Made by a program: the position numbers and the translations under genes. DNA of 17,324 bases, taken from a virus. Taxonomy: Duplodnaviria; Heunggongvirae; Uroviricota; Caudoviricetes. The first letter of the stretch is position 1, and every line of letters begins with the position of its first letter. Under the pieces are notes generated by a model. The model ran no database searches. It saw only the letters and a list, made by a program, of their open reading frames with translations, and was not told where the DNA came from. Of the stretch, positions 2,045 through 15,994 are shown in pieces. The stretch lies in the IMG/VR virus record IMGVR_UViG_2693429706_000005, one strand, 5' to 3'.

Positions 2045-2121
2045 GGCTACGTAGCTCAGTTGGTTAGAGCACATCACTCATAATGATGGGGTCACAGGTT
2101 CGAATCCNNNNNNNNNNATCA
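2045..2121 (+). tRNA. Elongator tRNA-Met (anticodon CAU); 3' T-stem and acceptor strand masked by N
   Basis: ggctacgtagctcagttggttagagcacatcactcataatgatggggtcacaggttcgaatcc matches E. coli elongator tRNA-Met through the T-loop. The 10 N then occupy exactly the length expected for the remaining T-stem and acceptor strand, followed by atca where ACCA is expected. Confidence 0.8.
2108..2117. other. Run of 10 ambiguous bases (N) at the tRNA 3' end and prophage junction
   Basis: Directly visible in the sequence; may be masking or an assembly gap. Confidence 0.99.
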
Positions 2122-2185
2122 GACCAGAACGCCAATTACAAGCAAAAATCAACAAAACAGTATTAGTTGATTGTTATCTCTGACT

Positions 2186-2326
2186 TCATACTCCTGCTCC
2201 TGTCAGGGTTTTGGCGTAATTCTTCAGTATTCGGTAATCGGTCAAAACAGAACCGGGGAAACGATATAAGCGCAGACGCCCCCAGCGGTGGCGAAGACGT
2301 TCTGCCATATAAAACTCAAACATCAT
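2186..2326 (-). CDS. ylcG: YlcG-like small phage protein (46 aa)
   Basis: Minus-strand translation gives [46 protein letters not shown]; start ATG overlaps the rusA stop (ATGA); same position as ylcG after rusA in DLP12. Below the ORF-track size cutoff. Confidence 0.6.
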
Positions 2327-2685
2327 TCATTCCCCATTTCGGTGATGGTCAGTTCCAGCCTCCCACCTTTGGTAACAGGCATCTTCACAACGCGGTAATC
2401 AACGACCTGAGCATCATCCAGCCAGAAACCTGCTTTAGTGAGTGCGTCAAAAGCGGCTTTTTGCAGATTATCCAGGTCACGGCGACGGCGATCCGGCATG
2501 TGGCACTCAATGCGGATTTTCACAGGCATAGCCAGGCCGATATCCAGCATTGCGTTTTTAATGATTCGGGCGACGTTATCGCGGTATGCCTGCCCCTCTG
2601 CGCTGACGTGCGTGCGCCCGCGATTATGGCGGTAATAGCGATTATTGCTCGGAGGCCAGGGTAATGTGATGCTGTAGGTATTCAC
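2323..2685 (-). CDS. rusA: RusA Holliday-junction resolvase (120 aa)
   Basis: Protein [37 protein letters not shown]... recognised as E. coli/DLP12 RusA; sits in the nin region order. Confidence 0.9.
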
Positions 2686-2972
2686 GCCTTAATAACCCCC
2701 TCTTTCAGCCAGATAACCTGTGTTCTCGCCATACCTTCCAGCGCGCATTCTTTTGCATATGCAGCATCGACAAAATGTGTGCGGCGGTCGATTTCGTCGT
2801 GGCAGGCAGAACATGCAATGGTGGCAATCAGGTCTGGCGGTTTGGTACCGGTGCCGCACAATCCAGTCAGCCGGATATGTGCCAGTACAGACGTTTCAGG
2901 GTTGCCATTACATACGCCAGGGATTCTTACCTGGCATTCCCGACTACGCGCTGCTTTTCTCAAATCAGCCAT
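2682..2972 (-). CDS. ybcO: YbcO-like DUF1364 protein (putative nuclease, Cys-rich), 96 aa from internal ATG
   Basis: [42 protein letters not shown]... recalled as DLP12 YbcO; ATG at 2970-2972 is preceded by AGGAGG, while the longer track ORF (to 3011) has no such signal. Confidence 0.8.
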
Positions 2973-3135
2973 GATTCCTCCTTGCTGCCAGTCGCAACCA
3001 TTTTTTATCAACCAGGCTGGCGGTATATCCGAGCAGTGTTGGTATTTCGGAAGGCTTCAGCTCCGGTTTACGCTTACGACGATCTGGTACTCTGTAGATG
3101 TGTCCGTTCATGACACGAATAAGCGGTGTAGCCAT
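2965..3135 (-). CDS. ninE: NinE-like protein (56 aa)
   Basis: Minus-strand translation [56 protein letters not shown]; its ATG overlaps the ybcN stop; below the ORF-track size cutoff. Confidence 0.7.
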   Translation of the reverse strand: MATPLIRVMNGHIYRVPDRRKRKPELKPSEIPTLLGYTASLVDKKWLRLAARRNHG

Positions 3136-3590
3136 TACGCCTCCTGCTTGTCGCGGAGCAGCTGGAACTCGCAGCTCTGCGGAATAGTCAGGTGGCAGCC
3201 AATATTCACCGCCCAGGCTTCAACCTTACACAGGAAGACATACATCTCTCCGGTATCAAGATCGGAGGTATGGCGTAACGACTGGATAGTGGTGATATCA
3301 CCGGTTACGACATCAACCAGGTCTTTGGTTTCATAACCGAGATATGTGTGTTTGAGAGCATCTTTTACCCAAGCTGGAGTGGCGAACGTTTTACCCTTGC
3401 TGATGAGGTATTCACTGATTTCGCTGTACCACATGTGGCTGAGTGCATTCTGGGAAAGACTGCGTCTCTCGCGCCACGGTTTAAGCACCATGCGAAAGCA
3501 TTTGCCGTCCTCCAGATAAGGCTGGATCTGCCGACCGATAGCGGTGAAGTTACCGCGATGCAATTTGATACCATCTTGTGGGAGGTTCAC
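3135..3590 (-). CDS. ybcN: YbcN / NinB-family protein (151 aa)
   Basis: [55 protein letters not shown]... recalled as DLP12 YbcN; GTG start at 3588-3590 preceded by GGAGG. Confidence 0.85.
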
Positions 3591-3830
3591 GCTTCACCTC
3601 CGCAGAGGTCAAACGTTGGATGCAAGATATCGCAGGTGCATTTCTGCATCTGTGACTGGTTGAAAGGTGTTCTGATTGTCGTTTGCACTTTGAGTCCCCT
3701 CAAAGCGCAGAAGTCACCGGAGTTGTTCAGGCTCCGATGACATGATTATGGCGAGTTGATTATGATGAATCAATAGGTTCTTATGTCAAATGAACACTAG
3801 ATCCAAAGGAGGGTAACAATTATCATAGCC

Positions 3831-3848
3831 AATGAGATTAATCTCATT
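3831..3848. promoter_or_regulatory. Perfect 18-bp palindrome (candidate operator) just upstream of the 472-aa gene RBS
   Basis: aatgagattaatctcatt equals its own reverse complement; sits 7 nt upstream of the AAGGA ribosome-binding site (3855-3859) of the ORF starting at 3866. Confidence 0.4.
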
Positions 3849-3865
3849 TTTAATAAGGAAATTTC

Positions 3866-5284
3866 ATGAAATATTTCTCAACTGGTTTTTATGTTTCAAA
3901 CTCCACATCTCTAGCTGAGATCTTTAATGAATGTTTTTCTTGGGTAAACGACTCACCACATACAACTTTTATTCCAGCACAATTAGTATGTGATTATAAA
4001 AGCGAGGAGTACTTCATAGAGTCTAAAAATGAAAGAATTGATATAATAACTTATAAAAACAAAGATACTAGTTTAGGCTGTTTTAGGTATTCGAAAATAT
4101 CTGAGCCACACAAATGGGTAACAGATATTTCAATTAATAAAAATCTCAAAACTGATACCATGTGGATTCAGGTGGAATCTAGCGTTGTAAGCCAAGATGC
4201 AGCTTATCTAGCCCCGCAACCTAAGAAACCATTAGTTGTTATGAGATTGATTGATAAATTTTCTGGTGGTCTTGATGATATTTTCAAGGTGTCAGTCGAA
4301 CCTCATTCCTTAGATGATACTGATGAACATTTAAATATAGCAGCTAAAGTTATAAATGGTGAAACTGACAACAGACTACCAATAATATACGTTAGCTCCA
4401 AGTATTTTTTTAATGAACATGCTCACAATATCATCCCAGAACGCCTTGCAAGAAAGGTATGCGGATTAGCACATGTATTAATTGAGCCTAGCAATAGACT
4501 ATTTTCTATTAAGCTAAAAAATGAGACAAATGCTAAAAATGCCTATGCTGGTGCTGTTGGTATCTATTGGCCACGGGGTCAAAATATCAGTTTTTATCGC
4601 CGTGGTGAGAAAACCGCAAAAGAATTTGAAGATGAGTTATTTGATGATGTTGTAAGAGCTACGACTACAATGGCTCCTGTCTCAGATAGTGGATGGAGTG
4701 AGATACAAACCAGAAAAACGAAAGACTCTATTAACTCACTCAAAGAAAGAGGAGAATACACACGCGAACTGATGGCGCTTTACGAAGCCGATAATGTTGC
4801 GAAAGATGACCAAATAGAAGATCTTAAGCATAAGATCTCCTCTTTAGAGCACAGAGTACGCACTCTTCAATCACAAGCTTCAGCCCAAGGAAGCATTGTG
4901 CTTAATGCTGGTGAAGAGACTGATTTTTTTGATGGAGAAATCAAAAATATAATTATTGACGCACTAAAAACTGCCATAAAAAATAAAAATGAATTTGGTA
5001 GAAGCTACCATATCTTATCATCCCTAATTGCCAATAATGAATACAATAAAGAAACCGAGAGTCGCCGCCAATTACTTAAAAGGACTTTAACAGGTTACAG
5101 AAGCATGGATAGCGCAACACAAAGAAATTTAAAGGACTTAGGTTTCAGTGCGTCAAGCGATGGAAAACACTGGAAGTTAACATATAATGAAGACCCTCGA
5201 TATTCCTATATTTTACCTAAAACAGGAAGTGACCACAGAGGTTCTTTAAATGCTATCTCGGATATAGCAAACATTATTTTCTAA
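3866..5284 (+). CDS. Hypothetical 472-aa protein in an AT-rich island, family not recognised; candidate defence/moron gene
   Basis: Long uninterrupted ORF with AAGGA RBS 6 nt before the ATG; strongly AT-rich versus flanking phage genes; opposite strand to the surrounding early-right operon; central heptad-like stretch (…RELMALYEADNVAKDDQIEDLKHKISSLEHRVRTLQSQ…); no motif I can assign. Confidence 0.7.
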   Translation: MKYFSTGFYVSNSTSLAEIFNECFSWVNDSPHTTFIPAQLVCDYKSEEYFIESKNERIDIITYKNKDTSLGCFRYSKISEPHKWVTDISINKNLKTDTMWIQVESSVVSQDAAYLAPQPKKPLVVMRLIDKFSGGLDDIFKVSVEPHSLDDTDEHLNIAAKVINGETDNRLPIIYVSSKYFFNEHAHNIIPERLARKVCGLAHVLIEPSNRLFSIKLKNETNAKNAYAGAVGIYWPRGQNISFYRRGEKTAKEFEDELFDDVVRATTTMAPVSDSGWSEIQTRKTKDSINSLKERGEYTRELMALYEADNVAKDDQIEDLKHKISSLEHRVRTLQSQASAQGSIVLNAGEETDFFDGEIKNIIIDALKTAIKNKNEFGRSYHILSSLIANNEYNKETESRRQLLKRTLTGYRSMDSATQRNLKDLGFSASSDGKHWKLTYNEDPRYSYILPKTGSDHRGSLNAISDIANIIF

Positions 5285-5292
5285 TAAATTTC

Positions 5293-5318
5293 AATAGCAC
5301 TCACAAATGAGTGCTATT
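5293..5318. terminator. Bidirectional hairpin between the convergent 472-aa and 84-aa ORFs
   Basis: Perfect 11-bp inverted repeat aatagcactca (5293-5303) / tgagtgctatt (5308-5318) with loop caaa, 9 nt after the TAA of the 472-aa gene and 18 nt after the stop of the minus-strand ORF; flanks are AT-rich but lack a clean U-run. Confidence 0.55.
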
Positions 5319-5335
5319 GTTGCCACTGAATTACT

Positions 5336-5590
5336 CTATTTAAATTCAACTTTTATCCCTTTGTTTAGCAGGGCATCAGAAACTGCCTTTTTTGTAACAT
5401 TTATCCCTGCAAGCAATGCTTTATGCATTGGTCCCTTAAAAATTTCTACTTCTTCTTCAGTGAGTTTAGGCAATGTAATATAAATAACATCTTTCATCTG
5501 CTTGTTTTTATAGCATGAGCTTCTTGTGTGCTTACAATCGATATTTTCTTTATTTCCCAAAACATCATCCCCTTTATAATTCAGTTCCAC
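5336..5590 (-). CDS. Hypothetical small protein (up to 84 aa; true start uncertain), AT-rich
   Basis: ORF-track entry starts at a GTG with no RBS; internal ATGs at 5495-5497 and further downstream. C-terminal segment MHKALLAGINVTKKAVSDALLNKGI has a helix-turn-helix-like pattern. Lies downstream of ren in the same transcriptional direction. Confidence 0.35.
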   Translation of the reverse strand: MELNYKGDDVLGNKENIDCKHTRSSCYKNKQMKDVIYITLPKLTEEEVEIFKGPMHKALLAGINVTKKAVSDALLNKGIKVEFK

Positions 5591-5654
5591 ACATCAATTA
5601 TTTAGTTATCACGAATGTCGTAAAACTAAAATTAGTAACAATAATTGCTCATAC

Positions 5655-5942
5655 CTACTCTCTTCCATATAAAGCCAACACCCGCTTCATCGCGGCACTT
5701 TGACGACACTCCTTAAAAATCAGATTCGTGCTCACCTTTCCTTCCCGTTCTTCTCTGGTAGCGAACCGGTAATACACCGTTCGCCAGACCTTACCATCAA
5801 CGACCAGGATTCCTGACCGCGCCATTTTAGCCGCAGCCTGATTTATGCTGGTTACGGTTGCGCCTGTTACCGCGGCAACGTCCTGCGCACAGAAGTTCTT
5901 ATGAGTCCCCAGGTAATGAATAATTGCCTCTTTGCCCGTCAT
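5655..5942 (-). CDS. ren: Ren-like protein (95 aa)
   Basis: MTGKEAIIHYLGTHKNFCAQDVAAVTGATVTSINQAAAKMARSGILVVDGKVWRTVYYRFATREEREGK... recalled as close to lambda Ren; its start overlaps the P stop as in lambda. Confidence 0.8.
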   Translation of the reverse strand: MTGKEAIIHYLGTHKNFCAQDVAAVTGATVTSINQAAAKMARSGILVVDGKVWRTVYYRFATREEREGKVSTNLIFKECRQSAAMKRVLALYGRE

Positions 5943-6640
5943 ACACTTGCTCCTTTCAGCCCAAACTTCGCTTTGATTTCTGCGATCTTCGCCAGAGCCT
6001 GAACACGATTAAGCGGTCTCCCGCCCATGACAGGAAGTTGTTTTACTGGTTCAGGTATCGCCTCACCACGGTTAATTCGCGCTGTCATACAGGCCAGTTC
6101 ATCGGCAGCCTTGCGCCGTAATTCCGCATCAGTCAGCGCATTGGCCCGCATGTTCTGATACAGGTTGGTAACCAGCCAGTAGTGCGCGTTTGATTTCCAC
6201 GGATAAGACTCTGCATCTGGATACAGGCCACGTTTCCGGCAATACTCGTAAACCATATCAACCAGCTCGCTGGCGTTTGGCAGCCCGGCGGTAACGGATG
6301 CTTCTTCCCGGCACCAGGCAACAAACTGCCCGGGTGATGGCAGGAATGGTCGATTCTGCCGACGGGCTACGCGCATTCCTGCGTTAACCTGTTCCATCGT
6401 GGTGATCCCGTTTTCCCGGAAAGCCAGAACCCACTGGCGGCGGATTTCGTTCAGTTCGTTCTGGTCCCGGTTAGCCAGGCTCGCCGGGAAAGTTGCCAGT
6501 AACTGGCTGAACACACCATTGATGATCTGCGCTACCTGTTGTACCTGCGGCTTTTCGTCGTACTGTTCCGGCATGTTGTTGGCGATCCGGCGCATCTGCT
6601 CACGGTCAAAGTTAACCATCTGTGCGGCGATGTTTTTCAT
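5939..6640 (-). CDS. P: Replication protein P (233 aa, DnaB helicase loader)
   Basis: MKNIAAQMVNFDREQMRRIANNMPEQYDEKPQVQQVAQIING... recalled as near-identical to lambda P; start overlaps the O stop (ATGA). Confidence 0.93.
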   Translation of the reverse strand: MKNIAAQMVNFDREQMRRIANNMPEQYDEKPQVQQVAQIINGVFSQLLATFPASLANRDQNELNEIRRQWVLAFRENGITTMEQVNAGMRVARRQNRPFLPSPGQFVAWCREEASVTAGLPNASELVDMVYEYCRKRGLYPDAESYPWKSNAHYWLVTNLYQNMRANALTDAELRRKAADELACMTARINRGEAIPEPVKQLPVMGGRPLNRVQALAKIAEIKAKFGLKGASV

Positions 6641-7566
6641 AAATCCACCCCGTAAATCCAGTCAGTGTTTGTCAGGTCGAGTTTTGATTTTCCGGCTATC
6701 ACGCCAGCCTGTTGCTTGTTACGGTTGATTTCGAGTTGGGTCCACTTGTCGCGGAGTTTGGCCGGACTTAGCACGTTACCGGACCAGAAGTTGTCCTGGC
6801 ATGCCCAGCGGAACAGCACGCACATGTCGCGGTGGTTACGGCCGTCACGTTCACGCATCAGGCGGATATCGTTAGCCCACCCTGCAAAATTCGGTTTTCT
6901 GGCTGATGGCGCGATGGTCTTCACCATGTCAAACATCCACTCTGCGGCGGTCAGGTCTTCTGCTGTCCCCCACCTGCTGCCGCTCTGAATTGCAGCATCT
7001 GGTTTCTCCACAGGAAGATCGTTTTCTGGTTGGTCAGAGGATTCGCCAGAATTCTCGGACGAAAAAGGTTTTATATTGTCTTTTGTTAGTTTGTATTTTG
7101 TGTTTACCTGATTCGGGTAAGTGCCTTTACCTGATTTGGGTAAACTTTTCTTACCTGATTCAGGTAAATTTACCTCTTTCAGGTAAACTTTATTTTTCTT
7201 ACCTGATTCGGGTAATGTTGACCATTCACTGACCACATTATTAATGCCGATATTCCGCCCGCTCTGAATAAAAATCCCACGCTTTACCAGAACACTTTTT
7301 GCAGCAGAACACTTGTGCGGCAATATCCCGGTCAACTCGGAAAGTTGCTCGTTGCTCACCCAATCCAGTTTTTTATTAAAGCCATATGTTTTGCGCATGA
7401 CAGCCAGGAAGACCAGAAGCTGGTGCTGTGTTAATCCGGCCAGCATCACAGCTTCCAGCAACTCATTTGCAATGCGCGTATAACCATCATCGAGATCTGC
7501 CACGCGCGGCTCCTTTTGTGCCGCATCCGGCACTGGAAAATTGAATATCTCAGCAGTGTTTGCCAT
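6637..7566 (-). CDS. O: Replication initiator O (about 309 aa from the ATG at 7566)
   Basis: Translation from the ATG at 7564-7566 (preceded by GGGAGG) gives MANTAEIFNFPVPDAAQKEPRVADLDDGY..., resembling the lambda O N-terminus; C-terminal region lambda O-like; iterons lie inside the gene. The track ORF extends upstream to 7656 but that extension has no RBS. Confidence 0.85.
   Translation of the reverse strand: MANTAEIFNFPVPDAAQKEPRVADLDDGYTRIANELLEAVMLAGLTQHQLLVFLAVMRKTYGFNKKLDWVSNEQLSELTGILPHKCSAAKSVLVKRGIFIQSGRNIGINNVVSEWSTLPESGKKNKVYLKEVNLPESGKKSLPKSGKGTYPNQVNTKYKLTKDNIKPFSSENSGESSDQPENDLPVEKPDAAIQSGSRWGTAEDLTAAEWMFDMVKTIAPSARKPNFAGWANDIRLMRERDGRNHRDMCVLFRWACQDNFWSGNVLSPAKLRDKWTQLEINRNKQQAGVIAGKSKLDLTNTDWIYGVDL
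7105..7215. repeat. Origin iterons (five direct repeats of about 16 bp, consensus tacctgattcgggtaa) inside O
   Basis: Copies at 7105-7120, 7128-7143, 7152-7167, 7171-7186 and 7200-7215 with one to three substitutions each, flanked by AT-rich DNA; matches the ori-lambda arrangement of iterons within O. Confidence 0.85.
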
Positions 7567-7652
7567 AATTCCTCCCGCAATGAGTGTGTTACGATTTGCA
7601 CCTGAAAGTCGGTTCTGTTCCCGCAGACCGACTTTCGCCATTTCTGAACCTG

Positions 7653-8192
7653 TCATATTGCCCCCAGCATGGTGGTCACCATCGCCATTAATGGACCAGC
7701 CAGATCCGGGTCCACACGAAACATCGACACAATACCTTCACTCATTTCCTTCAGTTTCTGGTGGCGTGGTGCGTTGAGAATGACAGCCTGTTTTGCCTCA
7801 CTGAGTTCCTTTTCCATTTCAGCCAACCGAGTCATGAAGCTATCCTGCTCAACCAGGTAACCGCGATATTCCAGCGGTAGTACCGCCAGAATTGCCGGGG
7901 TCAGTTCACGCACGTTATTTCGGTATTTTTCAGAATCGAATTTGTTATCGAGGAAGCGGAACAGCTTCTGGCGTGCACGGCTGACATCATCAGGGAAATC
8001 GATGGTGCCGTCGCCCTGCTCCCGATACTCATTCACAATGAGTGCGGCAACGACATCCTGATTATCTACAGCCGACCAGGCGCGGACGGCATCACGGATT
8101 TTTTCGTGGCCTGGAGCTTGTTTTGTTTGAGAACGATTTATCACCGCAGTCGGAATAAATCCGCTAGTCTGTTGGTATGTAAGTGGTTGCAT
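7653..8192 (-). CDS. YdaT-like protein in the cII position (179 aa)
   Basis: Strong RBS AAGGAG 6 nt upstream of the ATG at 8190-8192; lies between the cro-like gene and O; segment ELTPAILAVLPLEYR resembles the conserved motif I recall in Rac YdaT. Family assignment is from memory. Confidence 0.5.
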   Translation of the reverse strand: MQPLTYQQTSGFIPTAVINRSQTKQAPGHEKIRDAVRAWSAVDNQDVVAALIVNEYREQGDGTIDFPDDVSRARQKLFRFLDNKFDSEKYRNNVRELTPAILAVLPLEYRGYLVEQDSFMTRLAEMEKELSEAKQAVILNAPRHQKLKEMSEGIVSMFRVDPDLAGPLMAMVTTMLGAI

Positions 8193-8261
8193 AATTGACT
8201 CCTTTAGTTTGAATTGACTGTTAAGTTGATTGCTTATTGTTAAAGAGCGTGAAATGGAAAT

Positions 8262-8492
8262 TTAAGCTGCGTTCTTTTCGGTGTGTGGAAACAACTTCGG
8301 AAGATCCGGGCGAATCTGGTATGCCTTCACAACTCCACCAGTAGCCGTAACAATGCTGCCGACATGTTCAGGGGATACCTTTGCTTTGTTGTGAAGCCAC
8401 TTATAGACGGCCTGCTGTGAAACTTCGCAGGCATCGCCTAGTTTCTTTTGTGAACCAACGATATTGATCGCTGTTTTGATTGCTGGGTTCAT
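8262..8492 (-). CDS. Cro-like / YdaS-like HTH regulator (76 aa)
   Basis: Small HTH protein (…GSQKKLGDACEVSQQAVYKWLHNK…) transcribed divergently from the repressor gene; GGAGG RBS before the ATG at 8490-8492. Confidence 0.75.
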   Translation of the reverse strand: MNPAIKTAINIVGSQKKLGDACEVSQQAVYKWLHNKAKVSPEHVGSIVTATGGVVKAYQIRPDLPKLFPHTEKNAA

Positions 8493-8596
8493 AACAACCT
8501 CCGTGGTTAATCCGAATAAAGATTAAAACTATGGTTGTTTTTAGTCAACAACCATTTTCGTTTGATGAAATAAAACCTTGGTTGTACATTTGATCT
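8493..8596. promoter_or_regulatory. OR-like divergent promoter/operator region (pR leftward, pRM rightward)
   Basis: Inverted repeat atggttgtt…aacaaccat (8531-8555); -35 TTGACT on the minus strand (complement of 8543-8548) for the cro side; -35 TTGATG (8562-8567), 17-bp spacer, -10 TACATT (8585-8590) ending 6 nt before the repressor ATG, suggesting a leaderless repressor mRNA as in lambda pRM. Confidence 0.6.
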
Positions 8597-9286
8597 ATGA
8601 AAACAACACTCTCAGAAAGACTTAAAGAAGCCAGATTAGCGCGAGGCCTTACACAAAAGGCGCTTGGGGATTTGGTCGGGGTTAGCCAGGCTGCTATTCA
8701 GAAAATCGAAACAGGGAAAGCTAACCAAACAACTAAAATCGTGGAGATCGCGAACGCTTTGGGTGTGCGCGCAGAATGGTTATCTTCTGGCGTTGGAAAT
8801 ATGTCAGACAGTACAGTGCAACCAATACAATCAACTGTCAGCCATTCCAAATACTTCAAAATTGACGTTCTTGATATAGAAGTCAGTGCCGGGCCAGGTG
8901 TAATCAACCGTGAGTTTGTAGAAGTTCTACGCTCGGTTGAGTACTCGTTTGACGATGCTCGTCACATGTTCGATGGCAGGAAGGCGGAAAATATCCGCAT
9001 CATTAACGTGCGAGGTGACAGCATGTCAGGGACGATCGAACCAGGTGACCTGCTGTTCGTTGATATCACTGTTAAATCTTTCGACGGTGATGGCATCTAT
9101 GCGTTTCTGTACGACGACACTGCCCATGTAAAACGTCTTCAAATGATGAAGGATAAGCTGCTGGTTATCTCTGATAACAAGAGCTACTCGCCGTGGGACC
9201 CGATCGAGAAAGACGAGATGAACCGGGTGTTCATATTCGGTAAGGTCATTGGAAGCATGCCGCAGACGTACAGGAAGCATGGTTAA
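8597..9286 (+). CDS. CI-type prophage repressor (N-terminal HTH, C-terminal LexA-like S24 autopeptidase), 229 aa
   Basis: N-terminus LTQKALGDLVGVSQAAIQKIETGK (HTH); C-terminal domain with GDSM serine motif and a downstream Lys (…HVKRLQ…), typical of RecA-stimulated self-cleaving repressors. Not lambda cI by sequence. Confidence 0.9.
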   Translation: MKTTLSERLKEARLARGLTQKALGDLVGVSQAAIQKIETGKANQTTKIVEIANALGVRAEWLSSGVGNMSDSTVQPIQSTVSHSKYFKIDVLDIEVSAGPGVINREFVEVLRSVEYSFDDARHMFDGRKAENIRIINVRGDSMSGTIEPGDLLFVDITVKSFDGDGIYAFLYDDTAHVKRLQMMKDKLLVISDNKSYSPWDPIEKDEMNRVFIFGKVIGSMPQTYRKHG

Positions 9287-9515
9287 TTTATCTACGACTT
9301 AAGGGAGCGAAGGTTAAGGTTTATACCACTCGGATTAGATATTGCACTAAATTCTCTATAAGAACGCCAAATCTGTTTGCATATTTCAGTAAATATTCTC
9401 GTTGTTAGCTGAGATTTGTTGCTACTGTCAGCAAAATGTCCCCCTATCTCGTAGCGGTTTTTATTTCGAATCATTATGTTAAGATGTTTCTGATTATAAT
9501 GAATGGAAACATAAA

Positions 9516-9896
9516 ATGAGAAAAATCCTAATCGCTGCCATGATGGCATCTGTATTGGCTGGGTGTGCTTCTTCAGGCAACCAGCAACTCAAAAATGAAA
9601 CTGAAATTAGTGTCCAGTCTAAACTTCAGGAAGGTAAAACAACCAAGAATGAGGTTAAATCTTACTTTGGTTCTCCTGATGCTGTTTCATATACTGACAG
9701 TGGAAACGAGATCTGGAAGTACGCCTTTGCAAAAGTAAAAGTTAATGGCACCACTTTTATTCCATTCTATGGATTATTCCATAATGGAACGAACGGTACG
9801 AAAAAAGAACTTACTATTCTTTTTAACGATGACACGATTAAGAAATACACAATGTCAGAAACCCAAATAAACTCGAAATCAGGTTGGGCTGACTGA
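9516..9896 (+). CDS. Predicted outer-membrane lipoprotein (126 aa), possibly SmpA/OmlA (BamE-like) fold, in the rex position
   Basis: Signal peptide MRKILIAAMMASVLAGC with lipobox LAGC and Ala at +2; pattern T..EV..YFGSPD…EIWKY.F resembles the BamE/SmpA-OmlA motif; AT-rich; consensus -10 TATAAT at 9495-9500; terminator follows. Confidence 0.7.
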   Translation: MRKILIAAMMASVLAGCASSGNQQLKNETEISVQSKLQEGKTTKNEVKSYFGSPDAVSYTDSGNEIWKYAFAKVKVNGTTFIPFYGLFHNGTNGTKKELTILFNDDTIKKYTMSETQINSKSGWAD

Positions 9897-9904
9897 TAAT
9901 CATA

Positions 9905-9931
9905 CCCGGCAACCGCGCCGGGTTTTCTTTT
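9905..9931 (+). terminator. Rho-independent terminator after the lipoprotein gene
   Basis: cccggc (9905-9910), loop aaccgc, gccggg (9917-9922), then ttttctttt; starts 9 nt after the stop codon. Confidence 0.75.
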
Positions 9932-10039
9932 CCTCCCCCTCATAACTCATACCGTCCAAAAAACCACCACACCTCACTTCAGTTATCGCTATGCGATGCA
10001 AGTCACAAAATAAATCCATCCTAAATACAACCAGTTATA

Positions 10040-10100
10040 TTTAAAACAACCGACAAAACAACTTTTGTTGTTGACGATAAAACAACTATAGTTTTAAATT
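10040..10100 (+). promoter_or_regulatory. OL-like operator and pL-like promoter
   Basis: -35 TTGACG (10071-10076), 17-bp spacer, -10 TTAAAT (10094-10099); overlapping 10-bp palindrome aactatagtt (10084-10093), which recurs with one mismatch in the OR region (aactatggtt, 8527-8536); aacaac half-site motifs repeated. Confidence 0.55.
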
Positions 10101-10104
10101 AAAT

Positions 10105-10156
10105 TCATCGCAACGACACAACGATACGGTAACCACCTGTTTCACCGTTGCGATGA
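10105..10156 (+). promoter_or_regulatory. Structured leader: 11-bp inverted repeat enclosing 30 nt, just downstream of the pL-like promoter
   Basis: tcatcgcaacg (10105-10115) is the perfect reverse complement of cgttgcgatga (10146-10156); the intervening segment contains the ggtaacc palindrome; begins at about the predicted transcript start. Confidence 0.4.
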
Positions 10157-10377
10157 CCGCTTAGATCCGCAGTTTGAATTTCAGCAGGCTTCGGGGAGTG
10201 CGAGGGGTGAAACGGACGCGTGAACGTCGGTGTGACCAGCTGAAATCAACACAACACTTTATACCTCAGTCGCTTCAACGAGGCGGCTTAGTTATGACAA
10301 CCGGCGGCCATCCACCGCCTGAATACGCGCAGAAGTCTCTATATGTTCAGCAGCCCAGCTTACGGGCAGGAGTTTTT

Positions 10378-10584
10378 ATGGTTCATCAACATTACGGAAC
10401 GCAGACCGTTAATCGCGGTGCGGTCATGCCAGGAATGCTGGTCAAACACAAAGATGGTACCTGGACTGCATCAGCTAATTTACGCGGACGGCTTTATCTG
10501 CATCGCGGCATCGAGCGCACTTATACCCGTGATTTGCTCGTAGAAGTTTTTCTCGACGGACGCGGTAACGGCCTGAATCACTAA
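10378..10584 (+). CDS. Kil-like small protein (68 aa; KilR-like, possible cell-division inhibitor)
   Basis: ATG at 10378 with AGGAG RBS 5 nt upstream; product [65 protein letters not shown] resembles my recollection of Rac KilR (…HEGRTYIASAN…LYIRN…VFLGRDG…); first gene after the pL-like promoter. Confidence 0.5.
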
Positions 10585-10659
10585 TCCCCTTTCCTGTTTT
10601 CCTAATCAGCCTGGCATTTCGCGGGCGATATTTTCACAGCCATTTTCAGGAGTTCAGCC

Positions 10660-10956
10660 ATGAACGCTTATTACATTCAGGATCGTCTTGAGGCTCAGAG
10701 CTGGGCGCGTCACTACCAGCAGATCGCCCGTGAAGAGAAAGAGGCAGAACTGGCAGACGACATGGAAAAAGGCCTGCCCCAGCACCTGTTTGAATCGCTA
10801 TGCATCGATCATTTGCAACGCCACGGGGTCAGCAAAAAAGCCATTACCCGTGCGTTTGATGACGATGTTGAGTTTCAGGAGCGCATGGCAGAACACATCC
10901 GGTACATGGTTGAAACCATTGCTCACCACCAGGTTGATATTGATTCAGAGGTATAA
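10660..10956 (+). CDS. gam: Gam (RecBCD inhibitor), 98-aa form
   Basis: [56 protein letters not shown]... recalled as lambda Gam; AGGAG RBS 7 nt upstream. Confidence 0.9.
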
Positions 10957-10961
10957 AACGG

Positions 10962-11747
10962 ATGAGTACAGCACTCGCAACGCTGGCTGGGAAGCTGGCT
11001 GAACGAGTCGGCATGGATTCTGTCGACCCACAGGAACTGATCACCACTCTTCGCCAGACGGCATTTAAAGGTGATGCCAGCGATGCGCAGTTCATCGCAT
11101 TGCTGATCGTCGCCAACCAGTACGGTCTTAATCCGTGGACGAAAGAAATTTACGCCTTCCCTGATAAGCAGAACGGCATCGTTCCGGTGGTGGGCGTTGA
11201 TGGCTGGTCCCGCATCATCAACGAAAACCAGCAGTTTGACGGCATGGACTTTGAACAGGACAACGAATCCTGCACATGCCGGATTTACCGCAAAGACCGC
11301 AATCATCCGATCTGCGTTACCGAGTGGATGGATGAATGCCGCCGCGAACCATTCAAAACCCGCGAAGGCAGAGAAATCACGGGGCCGTGGCAGTCGCATC
11401 CCAAACGGATGTTACGGCATAAAGCCATGATTCAGTGTGCCCGTCTGGCCTTCGGATTTGCTGGTATCTATGACAAGGATGAAGCCGAGCGCATTGTCGA
11501 AAATACTGCATACACTGCAGAACGTCAGCCGGAACGCGACATCACTCCGGTTAACGATGAAACCATGCAGGAGATTAACACTCTGCTGATCGCCCTGGAT
11601 AAAACATGGGATGACGACTTATTGCCGCTCTGTTCCCAGATATTTCGCCGCGACATTCGCGCATCGTCAGAACTGACACAGGCCGAAGCAGTGAAAGCTC
11701 TTGGATTCCTTAAACAGAAAGCCACTGAGCAGAAGGTGGCAGCATGA
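10962..11747 (+). CDS. bet: Bet (Red-beta single-strand annealing protein), 261 aa
   Basis: [66 protein letters not shown]... recalled as lambda Bet. Confidence 0.95.
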
Positions 11748-12424
11748 CACCGGACATTATCCTGCAGCGTACCGGGATCGACGTGAGAGTTGTCGAACAG
11801 GGGGATGATGCATGGCACAAATTACGGCTCGGCGTCATCACCGCTTCAGAAGTTCACAACGTGATAGCAAAGCCCCGCTCAGGAAAGAAGTGGCCTGACA
11901 TGAAAATGTCCTACTTCCACACCCTGCTGGCTGAGGTTTGCACCGGTGTGGCTCCGGAAGTTAATGCTAAGGCGCTGGCCTGGGGAAAACAGTACGAGAA
12001 CGACGCCAGAACCCTGTTTGAATTCACTTCCGGCGTGAATATTACTGAATCCCCGATCATCTATCGCGACGAAAATATGCGCACCGCCTGCTCTCCCGAT
12101 GGTTTATGCAGTGACGGCAACGGCCTTGAACTGAAATGCCCGTTTACCTCCCGGGATTTCATGAAATTCCGGCTCGGTGGTTTCGAGGCAATAAAATCGG
12201 CTTACATGGCCCAGGTGCAGTACAGCATGTGGGTGACGCGAAAAGATGCCTGGTACTTTGCCAACTATGACCCGCGCATGAAGCGTGAAGGCCTGCATTA
12301 CGTCGTGGTTGAGCGGAATGAAAAGTACATGGCGAGTTTTGACGAGATGGTGCCGGAGTTCATCGAAAAAATGGACGAGGCACTGGCTGAAATTGGTTTT
12401 GTATATGGGGAGCAATGGCAATGA
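11744..12424 (+). CDS. exo: Exo (lambda exonuclease, Red-alpha), 226 aa
   Basis: [64 protein letters not shown]... recalled as lambda Exo; start overlaps the bet stop. Confidence 0.95.
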
Positions 12425-12603
12425 AGCATCCTCACGATAATATCCGGGTAGGCGCGATCACTTTCGTCTACTCCGTTACAAAGCGAGGCTGGGTATTTCC
12501 CGGCCTTTCTGTTATCCGAAATCCGCTGAAAGCCCAGCGGCTGGCTGAGGAGATAAATAATAAACGGGGAGCTGTATGCACAAAGCATCTCCCGTTGAAT
12601 TAA
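12415..12603 (+). CDS. Small ea-region protein (62 aa), lambda orf60a-like
   Basis: Start overlaps the exo stop; same position as the small ORFs that follow exo in lambda; name assignment is from memory and uncertain. Confidence 0.55.
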
Positions 12604-12767
12604 GAACGAGTATCGAGATGGCACATAGCCTCGCTCAAATTGGAGTCAGGTTTGTGCCAATACCAGTAGAAACAGACGAAGAATTTCATACGTTAGCCGC
12701 ATCCCTTTCACAAAAGCTGGAAATGATGGTGGCGAAAGCAGAAGCAGATGAGAGAGACCAGGTATGA
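12576..12767 (+). CDS. Small ea-region protein (63 aa), lambda orf63-like
   Basis: ATG at 12576 with purine-rich upstream sequence; overlaps the neighbouring ORFs, consistent with a translationally coupled chain. Confidence 0.55.
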   Translation: MHKASPVELRTSIEMAHSLAQIGVRFVPIPVETDEEFHTLAASLSQKLEMMVAKAEADERDQV

Positions 12768-12843
12768 CAACCACTGAATGCATTTTTCTGGCAGCGGGCT
12801 TCATATTCTGTGTGCTTATGCTTGCCGACATGGGGCTTGTTCA

Positions 12844-13059
12844 ATGACACCTCAGCAAGAAAACGCCCTTCGCAGCATTGCCCGTCAGGCTAATTCTGAA
12901 ATCAAAAAAGCCAGACAGCAGTTTCCGGATAAAAACGTCGATGACATTTGCCGTAGCGTACTAAAGAAGCACCGCGAAACGGTAACGCTGATGGGATTCA
13001 CACCGACTCATTTAAGCCTGGCGATCGGCATGTTGAACGGCGTCTTTAAGGAACGGTGA
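12844..13059 (+). CDS. Small ea-region protein (71 aa from ATG at 12844)
   Basis: In-frame ATG at 12844 gives MTPQQENALRSIARQANSEIKKARQQFPDKNVDDICRSVLKKHRETVTLMGF...; the longer track ORF from 12778 has no better start signal. Confidence 0.45.
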   Translation: MTPQQENALRSIARQANSEIKKARQQFPDKNVDDICRSVLKKHRETVTLMGFTPTHLSLAIGMLNGVFKER

Positions 13060-13157
13060 ACATGAAAAGCAAAATCATCAGGGAGCTACAGGCTCCTTTT
13101 TTATTATTCGCATTCACCCTCAAGCGTATTAACCAACAATTCAGGGATTAATGAAAG

Positions 13158-13379
13158 ATGGCAGACATAATTGATTCAGCATCAGAAATTGAAGAATTAC
13201 AGCGCAACACAGCAATAAAAATGCGCCGCCTGAACCACCAGGCTATATCTGCCACTCATTGTTGTGAGTGTGGCGATCCGATAGATGAACGAAGACGACT
13301 GGCCGTTCAGGGTTGTCGGACTTGTGCCAGTTGCCAGCAAGATCTGGAGCTTATCAGTAAACAGAGAGGTTCGAAGTGA
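13158..13379 (+). CDS. TraR/DksA-family C4 zinc-finger protein (73 aa), lambda Orf73-like
   Basis: CCECGDPIDERRRLAVQGCRTCASCQ carries the C-x2-C…C-x2-C motif of TraR/DksA-type RNA-polymerase-binding proteins; position matches the lambda b-region TraR homologue. Confidence 0.7.
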   Translation: MADIIDSASEIEELQRNTAIKMRRLNHQAISATHCCECGDPIDERRRLAVQGCRTCASCQQDLELISKQRGSK

Positions 13380-13531
13380 GCGAAATTAACTAGAAGCCAA
13401 AGATAAAATCATCGCTGAGCAGGAGAAAATCGCTAACGGAGAAAAGACAGTAAGTCAGTATATGAAAACCGCATGATATCATCAGATAAAAATCGGTCGT
13501 AAAGCGAAATATTAATACCAGAACAAACGAG

Positions 13532-13555
13532 TCGAGGTAAATTATATTACCTCGA
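13532..13555 (-). terminator. Hairpin downstream of the minus-strand membrane-protein gene
   Basis: Perfect 9-bp inverted repeat tcgaggtaa (13532-13540) / ttacctcga (13547-13555) with loop attata, about 35 nt after the stop of the 13590..14192 ORF on the minus strand; a T-containing tract follows on that strand. Confidence 0.4.
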
Positions 13556-13589
13556 TAAATTAACTAAAACTTGCCCGCTATATACTATA

Positions 13590-14192
13590 TCATTCAGTAT
13601 CATCACGCGCGGTCTGTGCATATGTCACTACCGCACCTAATATATTAATTTTCTTTTCAACATAGATAATATTATCGTACTCATAATTGCCATACGGATA
13701 GCAAATGCGAATATTCTCATGTAGATCGGGGTCATCCACCTCAGCTCCAGAACAACTTTTTGAACTACCGGAAGTATACCGATACGGTGCAACGTAAGAC
13801 GATGTCTCTCCAGGCAAAAAATAAGTTAGTGTCGTAAGGGGTATAATCAGAAAAAATCCAGCAAATATGCACATCCCTGCATAAACCTTAAGGTATGCTG
13901 ACAGACTCTTCCAGCCGCTTTGTTTTACTATCCCCTTCTTAACCCAAAACAGAGATAACAGAAAAGCTATTCCCATGCTAAACAGAATGTAATAGTGGGA
14001 TATACTCTGATTAAGAAACGTGACCCTGTAGATATCTGCCCGCCACCAGAAGAAAAGGAAAATAAAGATCAGCCCTGAAACTGTCATGCAAATCAAATAA
14101 GGATACGAATCTTTTTTCATGTTTAGCGCCCATAAAATTTTTCCTGACCCGGACAAATTTACCATCCATTTTTTGCGCAGAAAATAGCTCAT
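13590..14192 (-). CDS. Hypothetical polytopic membrane protein (up to 200 aa; start uncertain), AT-rich island
   Basis: At least three strongly hydrophobic segments (LICMTVSGLIFIFLFFWW, YYILFSMGIAFLLSLFWV, VYAGMCIFAGFFLIIPLTTLTYFL) followed by a soluble C-terminal region of about 70 aa rich in Tyr, Ser and Cys; opposite strand to the surrounding early-left operon. Confidence 0.55.
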   Translation of the reverse strand: MSYFLRKKWMVNLSGSGKILWALNMKKDSYPYLICMTVSGLIFIFLFFWWRADIYRVTFLNQSISHYYILFSMGIAFLLSLFWVKKGIVKQSGWKSLSAYLKVYAGMCIFAGFFLIIPLTTLTYFLPGETSSYVAPYRYTSGSSKSCSGAEVDDPDLHENIRICYPYGNYEYDNIIYVEKKINILGAVVTYAQTARDDTE

Positions 14193-14590
14193 TACTTACT
14201 GCACAATAATACACAAAATTGCGTAAATTTTTTGCATGGATTTTAGCTCTTTCAGCCGACATTTAAGGGGTAAATAGCATTTCCTAAAAGCAACTGCACC
14301 AACCCAACAGAATGGGCTACCGCTTACGTTGAGAGCAAAAAAGTGTATAGCAGCAATGAACAGCATCCTCGCACTGACGAGGATTTCTTTTATCTGAACT
14401 CGCTACGGCGAGTTTTTTTATGGAGATGATAAATGCACTTCCGAGTCACAGGTGAATAGAATGGAGAACCATTCAACAGAGTTATCGAAGCCGAGAACAT
14501 CAGCGACTGCTATGACCACTGGATGCTGTGGGCGCAGATAGCACATGCAGACGTAACCAATATTCGAATTGAAGAACTGAAAGAACACCA

Positions 14591-14612
14591 AGCCGCCTGA
14601 TGGCGGTTTTTT
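14591..14612 (+). terminator. Hairpin plus T-run immediately upstream of xis
   Basis: agccgcc (14591-14597), loop tgat, ggcgg (14602-14606), then tttttt (14607-14612); 27 nt before the xis ATG. Confidence 0.55.
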
Positions 14613-14639
14613 CTTGCGTGTAATTGCGGAGACTTTGCG

Positions 14640-14858
14640 ATGTACTTGACACTTCAGGAGTGGAACGCTCGCCAGCGACGCCCAAGAAGCCTTGAAACAG
14701 TTCGTCGATGGGTGCGCGAATGCAGGATATTCCCTCCTCCGGTTAAGGATGGAAGAGAATATCTGTTCCACGAATCAGCGGTAAAGGTTGACTTAAATCG
14801 ACCAGTAACAGGTAGCCTTTTGAAGAGGATCAGAAATGGGAAGAAGGCGAAGTCATGA
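14640..14858 (+). CDS. xis: Excisionase Xis (72 aa)
   Basis: MYLTLQEWNARQRRPRSLETVRRWVRECRIFPPPVKDGREYLFHESAVKVDLNRPVTG... recalled as lambda Xis; overlaps the int start as in lambda. Confidence 0.95.
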   Translation: MYLTLQEWNARQRRPRSLETVRRWVRECRIFPPPVKDGREYLFHESAVKVDLNRPVTGSLLKRIRNGKKAKS

Positions 14859-15906
14859 GCGCCGGGATTTACCCCCTAACCTTTATATAAGAAACAATGG
14901 ATATTACTGCTACAGGGACCCAAGGACGGGTAAAGAGTTTGGATTAGGCCGAGACAGGCGAATCGCAATCACTGAAGCTATACAGGCCAACATTGAGTTA
15001 TTTTCAGGACACAAACACAAGCCTCTGACAGCGAGAATCAACAGTGATAATTCCGTTACGTTACATTCATGGCTTGATCGCTACGAAAAAATCCTGGCCA
15101 GCAGAGGAATCAAGCAGAAGACACTCATAAATTACATGAGCAAAATTAAAGCAATAAGGAGGGGTCTGCCTGATGCTCCACTTGAAGACATCACCACAAA
15201 AGAAATTGCGGCAATGCTCAATGGATACATAGACGAGGGCAAGGCGGCGTCAGCCAAGTTAATCAGATCAACACTGAGCGATGCATTCCGAGAGGCAATA
15301 GCTGAAGGCCATATAACAACAAACCCTGTCGCTGCCACTCGCGCAGCAAAATCAGAGGTAAGGAGATCAAGACTTACGGCTGACGAATACCTGAAAATTT
15401 ATCAAGCAGCAGAATCATCACCATGTTGGCTCAGACTTGCAATGGAACTGGCTGTTGTTACCGGGCAACGAGTTGGTGATTTATGCGAAATGAAGTGGTC
15501 TGATATCGTAGATGGATATCTTTATGTCGAGCAAAGCAAAACAGGCGTAAAAATTGCCATCCCAACAACATTGCATGTTGATGCTCTCGGGATATCAATG
15601 AAGGAAACACTTGATAAATGCAAAGAGATTCTTGGCGGAGAAACCATAATTGCATCTACTCGTCGCGAACCGCTTTCATCCGGCACAGTATCAAGGTATT
15701 TTATGCGCGCACGAAAAGCATCAGGTCTTTCCTTCGAAGGGGATCCGCCTACCTTTCACGAGTTGCGCAGTTTGTCTGCAAGACTCTATGAGAAGCAGAT
15801 AAGCGATAAGTTTGCTCAACATCTTCTCGGGCATAAGTCGGACACCATGGCATCACAGTATCGTGATGACAGAGGCAGGGAGTGGGACAAAATTGAAATC
15901 AAATAA
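14836..15906 (+). CDS. int: Tyrosine integrase Int (356 aa)
   Basis: MGRRRSHERRDLPPNLYIRNNGYYCYRDPRTGKEFGLGRDRRIAITEAIQ... recalled as lambda Int, full length; C-terminal catalytic region present (…HELRSLSARLYEKQ…LLGHKSDTMASQYRDD…). Confidence 0.95.
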   Translation: MGRRRSHERRDLPPNLYIRNNGYYCYRDPRTGKEFGLGRDRRIAITEAIQANIELFSGHKHKPLTARINSDNSVTLHSWLDRYEKILASRGIKQKTLINYMSKIKAIRRGLPDAPLEDITTKEIAAMLNGYIDEGKAASAKLIRSTLSDAFREAIAEGHITTNPVAATRAAKSEVRRSRLTADEYLKIYQAAESSPCWLRLAMELAVVTGQRVGDLCEMKWSDIVDGYLYVEQSKTGVKIAIPTTLHVDALGISMKETLDKCKEILGGETIIASTRREPLSSGTVSRYFMRARKASGLSFEGDPPTFHELRSLSARLYEKQISDKFAQHLLGHKSDTMASQYRDDRGREWDKIEIK

Positions 15907-15979
15907 TGATTTTATTTTGACTGATAGTGACCTGTTCGTTGCAACAAATTGATAAGCAATGCTTTTTTATAATGCCAAC

Positions 15980-15994
15980 TTAGTATAAAAAAGC
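15980..15994. other. Lambda attachment core (prophage-host junction, attL-type B-O-P')
   Basis: Reverse complement of 15980-15994 is gcttttttatactaa, the 15-bp lambda core; the int-proximal side (15903-15979) matches the phage P' arm as I recall it (…gttggcattataaaaaagcattgcttatcaatttgttgcaacgaacaggtcactatcagtcaaaataaaatcatt…) and the ybhC side is the bacterial arm. Confidence 0.85.

Follow-up and report, generated by a model that had tools for sequence, protein, structure and literature searches.

A single-gene membrane-protein module of 434-type lambdoid prophages with an origin in the cos-proximal hotspot of P2-family phages

In this study, we analyzed a stretch of 17,324 nucleotides (nt) from a tailed virus (Caudoviricetes; IMG/VR record IMGVR_UViG_2693429706_000005), hereafter called the window, focusing on positions 13380 to 14639, where an AT-rich island carries a membrane-protein gene on the minus strand. 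Sequence comparison indicates that the island is a single-gene accessory module (moron) that comes from the cos-proximal gpQ-gpA hotspot of P2-family phages and is now carried by lambdoid phages of the 434 type. A first-pass annotation of the window had proposed a superinfection-exclusion or abortive-infection role for the gene, and judged by its genomic context such a role is plausible.

Results and discussion

Origin of the AT-rich island

The window represents the early-left arm of a lambdoid prophage, in which gam-bet-exo, orf60a/63 and orf73 (TraR) are followed by xis, int and att, and the region of interest shows 98-99.5% nucleotide identity to phages mEp332, 434 and 2B8, with identical neighbours. 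The locus had been described as a b-region equivalent, a designation that has to be replaced by the exo-xis region (orf73/TraR ... xis). The island itself extends from the stop of the TraR-like gene orf73 to the start of lambda-homologous DNA (13380..14364), and its deviant composition was confirmed, with a G+C content (GC) of 0.383 against 0.504 for bet to orf73 (10962-13379) and 0.459 for ORF55-xis-int. Similarity to lambda, HK630 and Stx phages restarts at about 14365, and most other lambdoids have ea22-type genes downstream of orf73 in place of the island. Deviant GC (0.38 versus 0.46-0.50) and a slot after orf73 that relatives fill differently are traits of a moron, and the gene is encoded on the other strand from the pL operon. 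Of 5426 complete Escherichia coli genomes, 905 (about 17%) contain no less than 80% of the 1.26-kb region, and only five sequenced phage records carry it, namely mEp332, 434, 434B and 2B8 (two records).

The source of the island was traced by blastn and alignment to a P88/P2-family segment at 13500..14346 on the minus strand, which comprises a cos-flank, the hotspot promoter region, the gene and a hairpin. Read from 14257 down to 13500, the island matches the E. coli P88-like copies L098 and L021 with 76% identity over 761 nt (blastn), a homology that takes in about 135 nt upstream of the gene, the gene itself and about 90 nt downstream. For the adjoining part, from 14346 down to 14253, alignment with the flank of P88 cos on the portal side scored 43, compared with a maximum of 28 in 300 shuffles. 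In a three-way alignment with P88 itself, a phage without the gene, about 85 nt of cos core proved to be missing at 14253-14257; in P88 these nucleotides stand between the two flanks and by eye resemble the P2 cohesive-end sequence. The island thus contains P88 backbone DNA from either side of cos. From the homology with the P88-like copies and the cos flanks we therefore regard the island as a fragment of a P88/P2-family cos hotspot, inserted in the exo-xis region in inverted orientation relative to pL, and since the island contains P88-type cos-flank DNA, the direction of transfer was from the P2 family to the lambdoids.

Gene model and start codon

The open reading frame (ORF) first described, 13590..14192 on the minus strand with 200 amino acids (aa), is present as reported, and it represents a genuine gene: dN/dS ratios (nonsynonymous to synonymous substitution) of 0.09-0.15 were obtained against P2-family copies of 59-80% identity, which indicates strong purifying selection. 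The gene corresponds to CPT_434_36 of phage 434 and XSB40999 of mEp332, both recorded as 'putative membrane protein', and to an orthologue in 2B8 under the same label. These records assign no function, add a 56-aa gene upstream and differ in the start, 434 having 188 aa from a TTG and mEp332 200 aa. The ambiguity of the start codon noted in the first-pass annotation is real. It is settled by comparison: all diverged full-length homologues (166-189 aa) begin at Met25 of the 200-aa ORF with MKK(D/Y)SYP, and an in-frame TAA shuts the upstream extension in the P2-family copies L021 and L098 of E. coli. Because of these two facts, the start was placed at the ATG at 14120, which gives a gene of 176 aa plus stop at 13590..14120 on the minus strand, and the 200-aa and 188-aa starts were dropped. 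The ribosome-binding site is weak, in agreement with the earlier remark that no strong one is visible. The 24-codon N-terminal extension (14121..14192, minus strand) is missing from all diverged homologues and holds the conserved -10 element described below; judged from the sequence, it is probably 5' untranslated region and promoter, not coding.

Promoter region, repeats and 3' hairpin

A candidate promoter was found in the extended -10-like element TGGTAAATT at 14156..14164 on the minus strand, which has the conserved form TGnTAAATT. This motif stands at -44 in all lambdoid copies and in the P2-family copies of 69-80% identity, and TGATAATTT or TGGTAATTT is located at -47/-48 in the copies of 56-59% identity, chromosomal Citrobacter included. 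A scan for a two-hexamer consensus misses the element because the -35 is weak. Its position is analogous to that of the mapped old-tin promoter of P2, and we infer that TGnTAAATT serves as the module's own promoter, with transcription starting at about 14149.

At the other end, a hairpin with a 9-bp stem and a 6-nt loop lies at 13532..13555 on the minus strand, 35 nt past the stop (-12.9 kcal/mol, z = -1.9). It had been noticed at the outset and is sound, the 9 bp being 100% complementary, and it is kept in position in the P2-family copies L098 and L021 with one compensatory change of an A-T to a G-C pair. The hairpin is a putative terminator or 3'-end stabiliser of the module, the transcript of which would end at about 13530, and it has no good U-tract. 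Comparison thus strongly supports the earlier proposal of an independently transcribed accessory gene, since about 135 nt of upstream DNA with the putative -10 element and the 3' hairpin travel along with the gene.

Upstream of the -10 element, the degenerate direct repeats TTTACGCAA, TTTTGTGTA and ATTGTGCA occupy 14200..14228 on the minus strand with a 10-nt period. They include a TTGT-N6-TTGT at 14203-14216 (minus strand), a site that the 434 record labels as CII-binding. The P2-family copies have three ATTGTGCA repeats at -106/-96/-86, where the window has two and a half; P88, without the gene, has the same ATTGTGCA repeats and then diverges at once, and P2 has analogous (A/T)ATGCA repeats ahead of the old promoter. 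Since P88 has them in the absence of the gene and P2 has analogues, the repeats were assigned to the P2-family backbone; in P88 no CII is expected. Most simply, then, the CII site annotated in 434 would be a relic of the P88 repeats, and designed regulation by CII was set aside as unlikely for the same reason. The CII-activated promoters of lambda (pRE, pI and paQ) have TTGC-N6-TTGC straddling a weak -35; the window has TTGT-N6-TTGT within ATTGTGCA repeats.

These repeats also bear on the very improbable explanation that the gene acts in the phage's own cycle, for instance as a lysis or injection helper, or is expressed transiently under CII control through TTGT-N6-TTGT when lysogeny is established. 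The CII consensus of the 434 record agrees with it, as does the distance of the repeats from the inferred transcription start (about -50 to -80). The presence of the repeats in P88 without the gene, their P2 analogues before the old promoter and our estimate that about six chance TTGY-N6-TTGY matches are expected per 48-kb genome all speak against it. The gene is moreover absent from most lambdoid and most P2-like phages and is therefore dispensable, lies outside the lysis and morphogenesis clusters, and exists outside phages too.

Repeats of this kind are a wider feature of P2-family phages, which have three or four of them with a 10-nt period between cos and the first hotspot gene, whatever the cargo. 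The type is ATTGTGCA in P88-like phages and (A/T)ATGCA in P2, where the set lies just upstream of the mapped old-tin promoter; they were located at 5895-5921 in L098, at about 3615-3645 in P88 (L115), at 2950-2990 (minus strand) in P2 (L113) and in the upstream regions of L004, L103 and L106-108. They could form a regulator- or terminase-binding array. The promoter region is not always preserved: in the IMG/VR contigs L048 and L058 foreign DNA begins with a divergence 10-12 nt upstream of the ATG, in L087, also from IMG/VR, divergence follows the repeats, and in E. coli S115 (hit H1) an IS903B lies inside the region. Such inserts in, or replacements of, the promoter region suggest occasional silencing or re-wiring of the gene.

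Genomic contexts and relationship to the P2 hotspot

A total of 80 viral contigs were considered in a survey of contexts. In 64 of them the copies are at least 97% identical and all stand between orf73 and, where it is on the contig, xis, a subset being without lambda-type xis/int. Another 14 copies, with 52-80% identity, belong to P2-family phages and are flanked by the portal gene/cos and by gpA, in the place and orientation of old in P2. The remaining two have other contexts. The same P2 old/tin slot (portal/cos-gpA) was recovered in prophage loci for five of the eight diverged Enterobacteriaceae homologues looked up, and the P2-family position is represented in Salmonella, Klebsiella michiganensis, E. 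coli and one metagenome. In Enterobacter a lone chromosomal copy follows a LysR gene in an arrangement shared across species, and Klebsiella, Cedecea, Proteus and Pseudomonas have lone chromosomal copies as well. The module of gene, upstream DNA and hairpin is therefore shared by lambdoids, many P2-family phages and chromosomal sites.

The neighbours change with the context, from lambdoid genes to P2-family variants (ORFs of 81 and 119 aa, YafO, ParM, AAA_16) and to chromosomal genes for LysR, GGDEF, phosphotransferase-system and extracytoplasmic-function sigma factor proteins. No neighbour gene, sensor or enzyme partner is conserved across the contexts examined, from which we conclude that the gene probably works alone. 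The suggestion that it might be a partner of another module was thus not supported, both for want of a conserved neighbour and because the 56-aa ORF annotated upstream of it is not a gene. This ORF (14196..14366, minus strand; CPT_434_35 of 434, 'putative membrane protein') was judged non-coding and rejected as a partner, since it lies on DNA homologous to the non-coding cos flanks of P88, with 1-nt frame-breaking indels. Its ATG falls on the junction of island and backbone, it has no family match, and it is not found upstream of the gene in other contexts.

In P2, the cos-proximal slot holds in the same orientation the exclusion genes old and tin, for which prophage transcription starts have been mapped. 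According to the available text and tables of Rousset et al. 2022 (PMC9122126), the gpQ-gpA interval of P2-like prophages is an experimentally validated hotspot rich in anti-phage systems that also carries partition systems and toxins. The fourth most frequent entry of the hotspot there, 'system 4' of Table S5B, is a single 181-aa protein with '3 TM' and no Pfam family, listed with 470 occurrences in E. coli. The window protein is 52% identical to system 4 over 168 aa (BLASTP, E = 5e-57), and the two share length, three transmembrane (TM) segments, the CSGA...ICYP motifs and the status of a single-gene entry. They differ in location, the window copy lying outside gpQ-gpA, between orf73 and xis in the exo-xis region of a lambdoid prophage; the available part of the paper gives neither a function nor a topology. 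The motifs of the family appear nowhere in its tables of tested systems (S2A and S2B), and as far as the available text shows the family was catalogued rather than assayed.

One P2-like prophage of K. michiganensis (L018-L020, 1281-4623, minus strand) has a gene for a 790-aa AAA_16 (STAND-like) protein, together with one for a 279-aa protein on the opposite strand, beside the membrane gene. This pair is likely a separate defence system that shares the hotspot.

Family searches

A search of 5.8 billion proteins returned 74 relatives, and a profile search of 1.84 billion representatives returned 62 matches and recovered this family alone; all relatives are labelled 'hypothetical' and come from Enterobacterales and Pseudomonas. 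The sole family match was phrog_1416, of unknown function, at residues 113-200 of the 200-aa form (E = 7e-51), a profile that spans TM3 and the C-terminal domain only. Scans of the membrane protein and the 56-aa ORF against Pfam, NCBIfam and PADLOC gave nothing beyond a chance match to DUF6057 (E = 0.24), and in PADLOC-DB v2.0.0 neither the 200-aa protein nor the 56-aa ORF had a match at E <= 1. Neither the PDB sequences nor BFVD held a relative of the membrane protein, and Rfam gave chance matches only on 13000-15000. Two large proteins with partial profile matches to the C-terminal domain, P0124 and P0131 (E of about 1e-5 and 7.5e-4), were disregarded as weak, P0131 being of low complexity. 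The literature on mEp332, the 434 genome, lambdoid hotspots, GevT/HipD and the exo-xis region contained no functional statement on the gene, and a paper on HepS (Nature 2026) had no bearing on it.

Protein architecture and topology

The first-pass annotation had predicted three or more TM helices and a soluble C-terminal domain. Both were reproduced, the number of TM segments being exactly three by hydropathy and by an AlphaFold model (19-sequence alignment; predicted local distance difference test, pLDDT, 86.5). In the model all three helices are long, loop 1 contains a short strand, and the C-terminus forms a beta domain of five strands with a pLDDT of about 90; the domain modelled alone also reached 90. 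This conserved domain of 75 aa is a predicted five-strand beta-barrel with two invariant cysteines. In all 24 members compared, which span the family, there are exactly two cysteines in the domain, both invariant, loop 2 holds 3-7 Lys/Arg, and the N-terminus and loop 1 are short. In the domain-only model the cysteines (residues 23 and 40) flank the beta2-beta3 hairpin (strands 25-30 and 35-40); in the numbering of the 200-aa form they are C147 and C164. In the model of the whole protein, the loop 1 strand after TM1 (residues 34-36 of the 176-aa protein) lies on the C-domain side of the membrane.

By the positive-inside rule, the N-terminus and the lysine-rich loop 2 are assigned to the cytoplasm, and loop 1 (IYRVTFL) and the C-terminal domain to the periplasm. 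The predicted topology is accordingly N-in, C-out, with the domain and conserved loop 1 in the periplasm, where a disulfide between the two invariant cysteines is plausible. The best-conserved sequence of the family, Y.Y.SG...CSGA.V(D/E)(D/E)P(D/E)L..I(R/K)ICYP.G.Y....Y(V/I)EKRSN.LG.VV, is in the predicted periplasmic part. The window domain is net acidic, with 6 basic and 12 acidic residues, a property in which the family is not uniform. Predicted cytoplasmic exposure amounts to about 25 residues, which leaves no room for a cytoplasmic sensor or enzyme.

Possible functions

As a very common uncharacterised cargo of the P2 anti-phage hotspot, the gene would probably protect the lysogen from other phages. 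With regard to how it might do so, we tentatively favour, short of calling it probable, a prophage-expressed superinfection-exclusion protein at the periplasmic face of the inner membrane. In the lysogen, the extended -10 promoter of the module would drive the gene, just as old and tin are transcribed at the same position of P2, and the beta-barrel at the periplasmic face would bind a genome-delivery component of the incoming phage or a host inner-membrane factor used by it. Binding would block DNA entry and so produce superinfection exclusion, in a mode that may resemble that of P22 SieA or HK97 gp15, with a protein unrelated to either. An exclusion-type mechanism was favoured over abortive infection because almost nothing of the protein is cytoplasmic and its conserved domain is predicted to be periplasmic.

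SieA of P22 is a prophage-expressed inner-membrane protein of about 164 aa that is sufficient alone and blocks the conduit of ejection proteins (Leavitt et al. 2024, PMC10883804). Exclusion proteins of this type keep a superinfecting phage from injecting its DNA, and mutations that escape them map to ejection proteins. The window protein resembles it in size (about 165-176 aa), in its three predicted TM helices, in being encoded by one gene that runs antisense to those around it and has a putative promoter of its own, and in an uncertain start. The soluble part of SieA is helical and lies between TM1 and TM2, whereas that of the window protein is a predicted C-terminal, disulfide-containing beta-barrel, and SieA is restricted to P22-like phages. 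Homology to SieA (types A-C) was rejected (hhalign probability 0.1%, E = 0.51), and no PHROG of SieA type matched at E <= 0.1. The likeness to P2 old and tin is positional and regulatory only: the P2-family copies have the cos-proximal position and orientation of old and similar 10-nt-period repeats followed by a promoter, but Old is a cytoplasmic ATPase-nuclease, Tin is soluble, and there is no homology.

The alternative, also raised in the first-pass annotation, of an abortive-infection membrane effector supposes a protein that would be inert until infection and then permeabilise or depolarise the inner membrane, so that the cell dies before phage release, in the manner of RexB or another TM effector. 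The gene does reside in a defence hotspot in which, according to the available text of PMC9122126, many systems use TM effectors. We consider it unlikely all the same. Two-component abortive systems with a TM effector, such as Rex-like ones or CBASS/TIR with TM proteins, have an adjacent conserved partner, whereas this is a single gene without a sensor partner in any context. With about 25 residues in the cytoplasm, its conserved part is the predicted periplasmic domain and not the helices, and the three TM helices have few conserved polar residues and no evident pore-lining surface. The absence of a PADLOC match and the stable chromosomal copies in core-type contexts, which speak against a dangerous toxin, point in the same direction.

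Several observations weigh against the exclusion proposal itself. Since partition systems and toxins are found in the P2 hotspot too, location there is suggestive and not diagnostic. Stable single-copy chromosomal homologues stand beside housekeeping-type genes in Enterobacter, Klebsiella, Cedecea, Proteus and Pseudomonas and give a hint of a general envelope role. The topology is based on hydropathy, the positive-inside rule and AlphaFold, and with a weak -35 and a 3' hairpin lacking a U-tract, the promoter, the terminator and lysogenic expression are putative.

The chromosomal homologues and the mixed content of the hotspot are also the grounds for a somewhat doubtful alternative, in which the gene serves lysogenic conversion or host physiology and is not anti-phage. 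It could then provide envelope stress tolerance, orphan immunity to a toxin or bacteriocin acting in the periplasm, or regulation of a membrane sensor, and it is equally doubtful that phages carry it for such a benefit to the host. Genes for toxins, bacteriocins or sensors are not its regular neighbours, however, and the phage-borne clade occupies the exact slot of the exclusion genes old and tin and was captured independently by two temperate phage families. Small membrane-anchored OB-like (oligonucleotide/oligosaccharide-binding) beta-barrels (DUF1093, e.g. PDB 3npp and 2k5q) were counted among the closest known systems, yet all structural matches were below significance, which likewise tells against a host-physiology role.

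Should superinfection exclusion be correct, the protein might be the first known of a new family of exclusion proteins, each encoded by one gene and set apart in structure by three TM helices and a disulfide-stapled periplasmic beta-barrel that acts from the periplasmic side on a conserved step of genome entry. This family would have been exchanged between P2-like and lambdoid prophages and domesticated in Enterobacter, Klebsiella, Proteus and Pseudomonas. We put this forward as a speculative and rather unlikely extension.

Neighbouring features and the remainder of the prophage

The left neighbour of the island is orf73, a TraR/DksA-type zinc-finger gene in the pL direction (13158..13379, plus strand; PF01258, E = 5e-9; phrog_54); lambda Orf73 is a homologue of TraR (PMC9239242). 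To the right, xis (14640..14858) and int (14836-15906) follow on the plus strand according to the annotation of 434 and mEp332, xis with 100% identity in most related loci. At the right edge of the island, two tandem terminator-like hairpins on the plus strand (14365-14384 and 14396-14415, together 14365..14415; -22.8 kcal/mol, z = -4.5) lie in lambda-homologous DNA.

Between these hairpins and xis lies an inactivated homologue of ORF55 (14433..14600, plus strand; phrog_676), in which TGG is changed to TAG at 14457-14459 (codon 9), as shown by alignment with mEp332 and 434; the intact mEp332 copy matches phrog_676 with E = 5.5e-40. ORF55 adjoins xis in lambda, 434 and mEp332. In the window, an intrinsic terminator follows it just upstream of pI/xis (14590..14609, plus strand; T-run on the plus strand, z = -3.3). 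The hairpin at 14591-14612, once taken for the second flank of the accessory gene, is this plus-strand terminator of the lambda-type backbone and lies about 225 nt outside the island. The 434 record places a terminator just upstream of pI as well (citing PMID 6305007); the hairpins of 434 and the window differ in sequence because 434 has an extra segment there. This segment of 440 bp (ORF114) stands between ORF55 and xis at 4252-4596 and 4597-4700 of 434 (L001) and is found neither in the window nor in mEp332, so that the xis-proximal part of the exo-xis region is itself variable. The window lacks 2 nt of the T-run in the terminator-like hairpin that precedes ORF55 (about 14414-14420), and the best match of the region among E. 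coli genomes has 99.6% identity, not 100%.

The prophage as a whole is a remnant without late genes. Host asnB (1-1665) and DNA up to the tRNA-Met region abut lambdoid DNA at about 2108-2118, and at the other end a normal lambda att core (15972-15986) lies beside a pectinesterase-family gene (PF01095), which we take from the K-12 map to be ybhC. No complete E. coli genome has 80% or more of positions 1300-2500, which span the asnB/prophage junction. These observations suggest that a large stretch was deleted or rearranged, or that two prophages recombined. Another AT-rich island at 3600-5600 (GC 0.36) contains an ORF at 3866-5284 on the plus strand, the 472-aa product of which has no Pfam match and matches the candidate defence protein HEC-07 in PADLOC (E = 1e-9). 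In PhiR26_1, the closest phage record, 'PD-lambda-1' is among the features that fall somewhere under the match to 2118-13337. The ORF lies in the immunity-proximal region and probably has a defence role.

Conclusions

The gene is not undiscovered, because it is in GenBank and its family appears in the supplementary table of one paper as an abundant unknown, and its kind is familiar, that of a membrane-protein moron of one gene in a prophage, perhaps for exclusion. What is new is the link between gp36 of 434 and system 4 of the P2 hotspot, a gene model with a revised start, a prediction of topology and fold, and the recognition of the lambdoid island as transplanted P2-family DNA. A common gene with no family name and no fold relative, present in 905 of 5426 E. 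coli genomes and with relatives found 470 times in P2-like hotspots, lies in phage 434, which is among the best-studied phages. With a 176-aa frame, a topology prediction, a minimal module and a hypothesis it is now well defined for experiment, and 434 and lambda imm434, the latter without the gene, offer natural isogenic controls. The island also provides a concrete case of accessory-gene traffic from the cos hotspot of the P2 family to the lambdoid exo-xis region. If the exclusion role is true, the small set of injection blockers known from Gram-negative bacteria would gain a new architecture, and a function would be found both for an unassigned gene of phage 434 and for a cargo that ranks among the most abundant of those still unexplained in the P2 hotspot.

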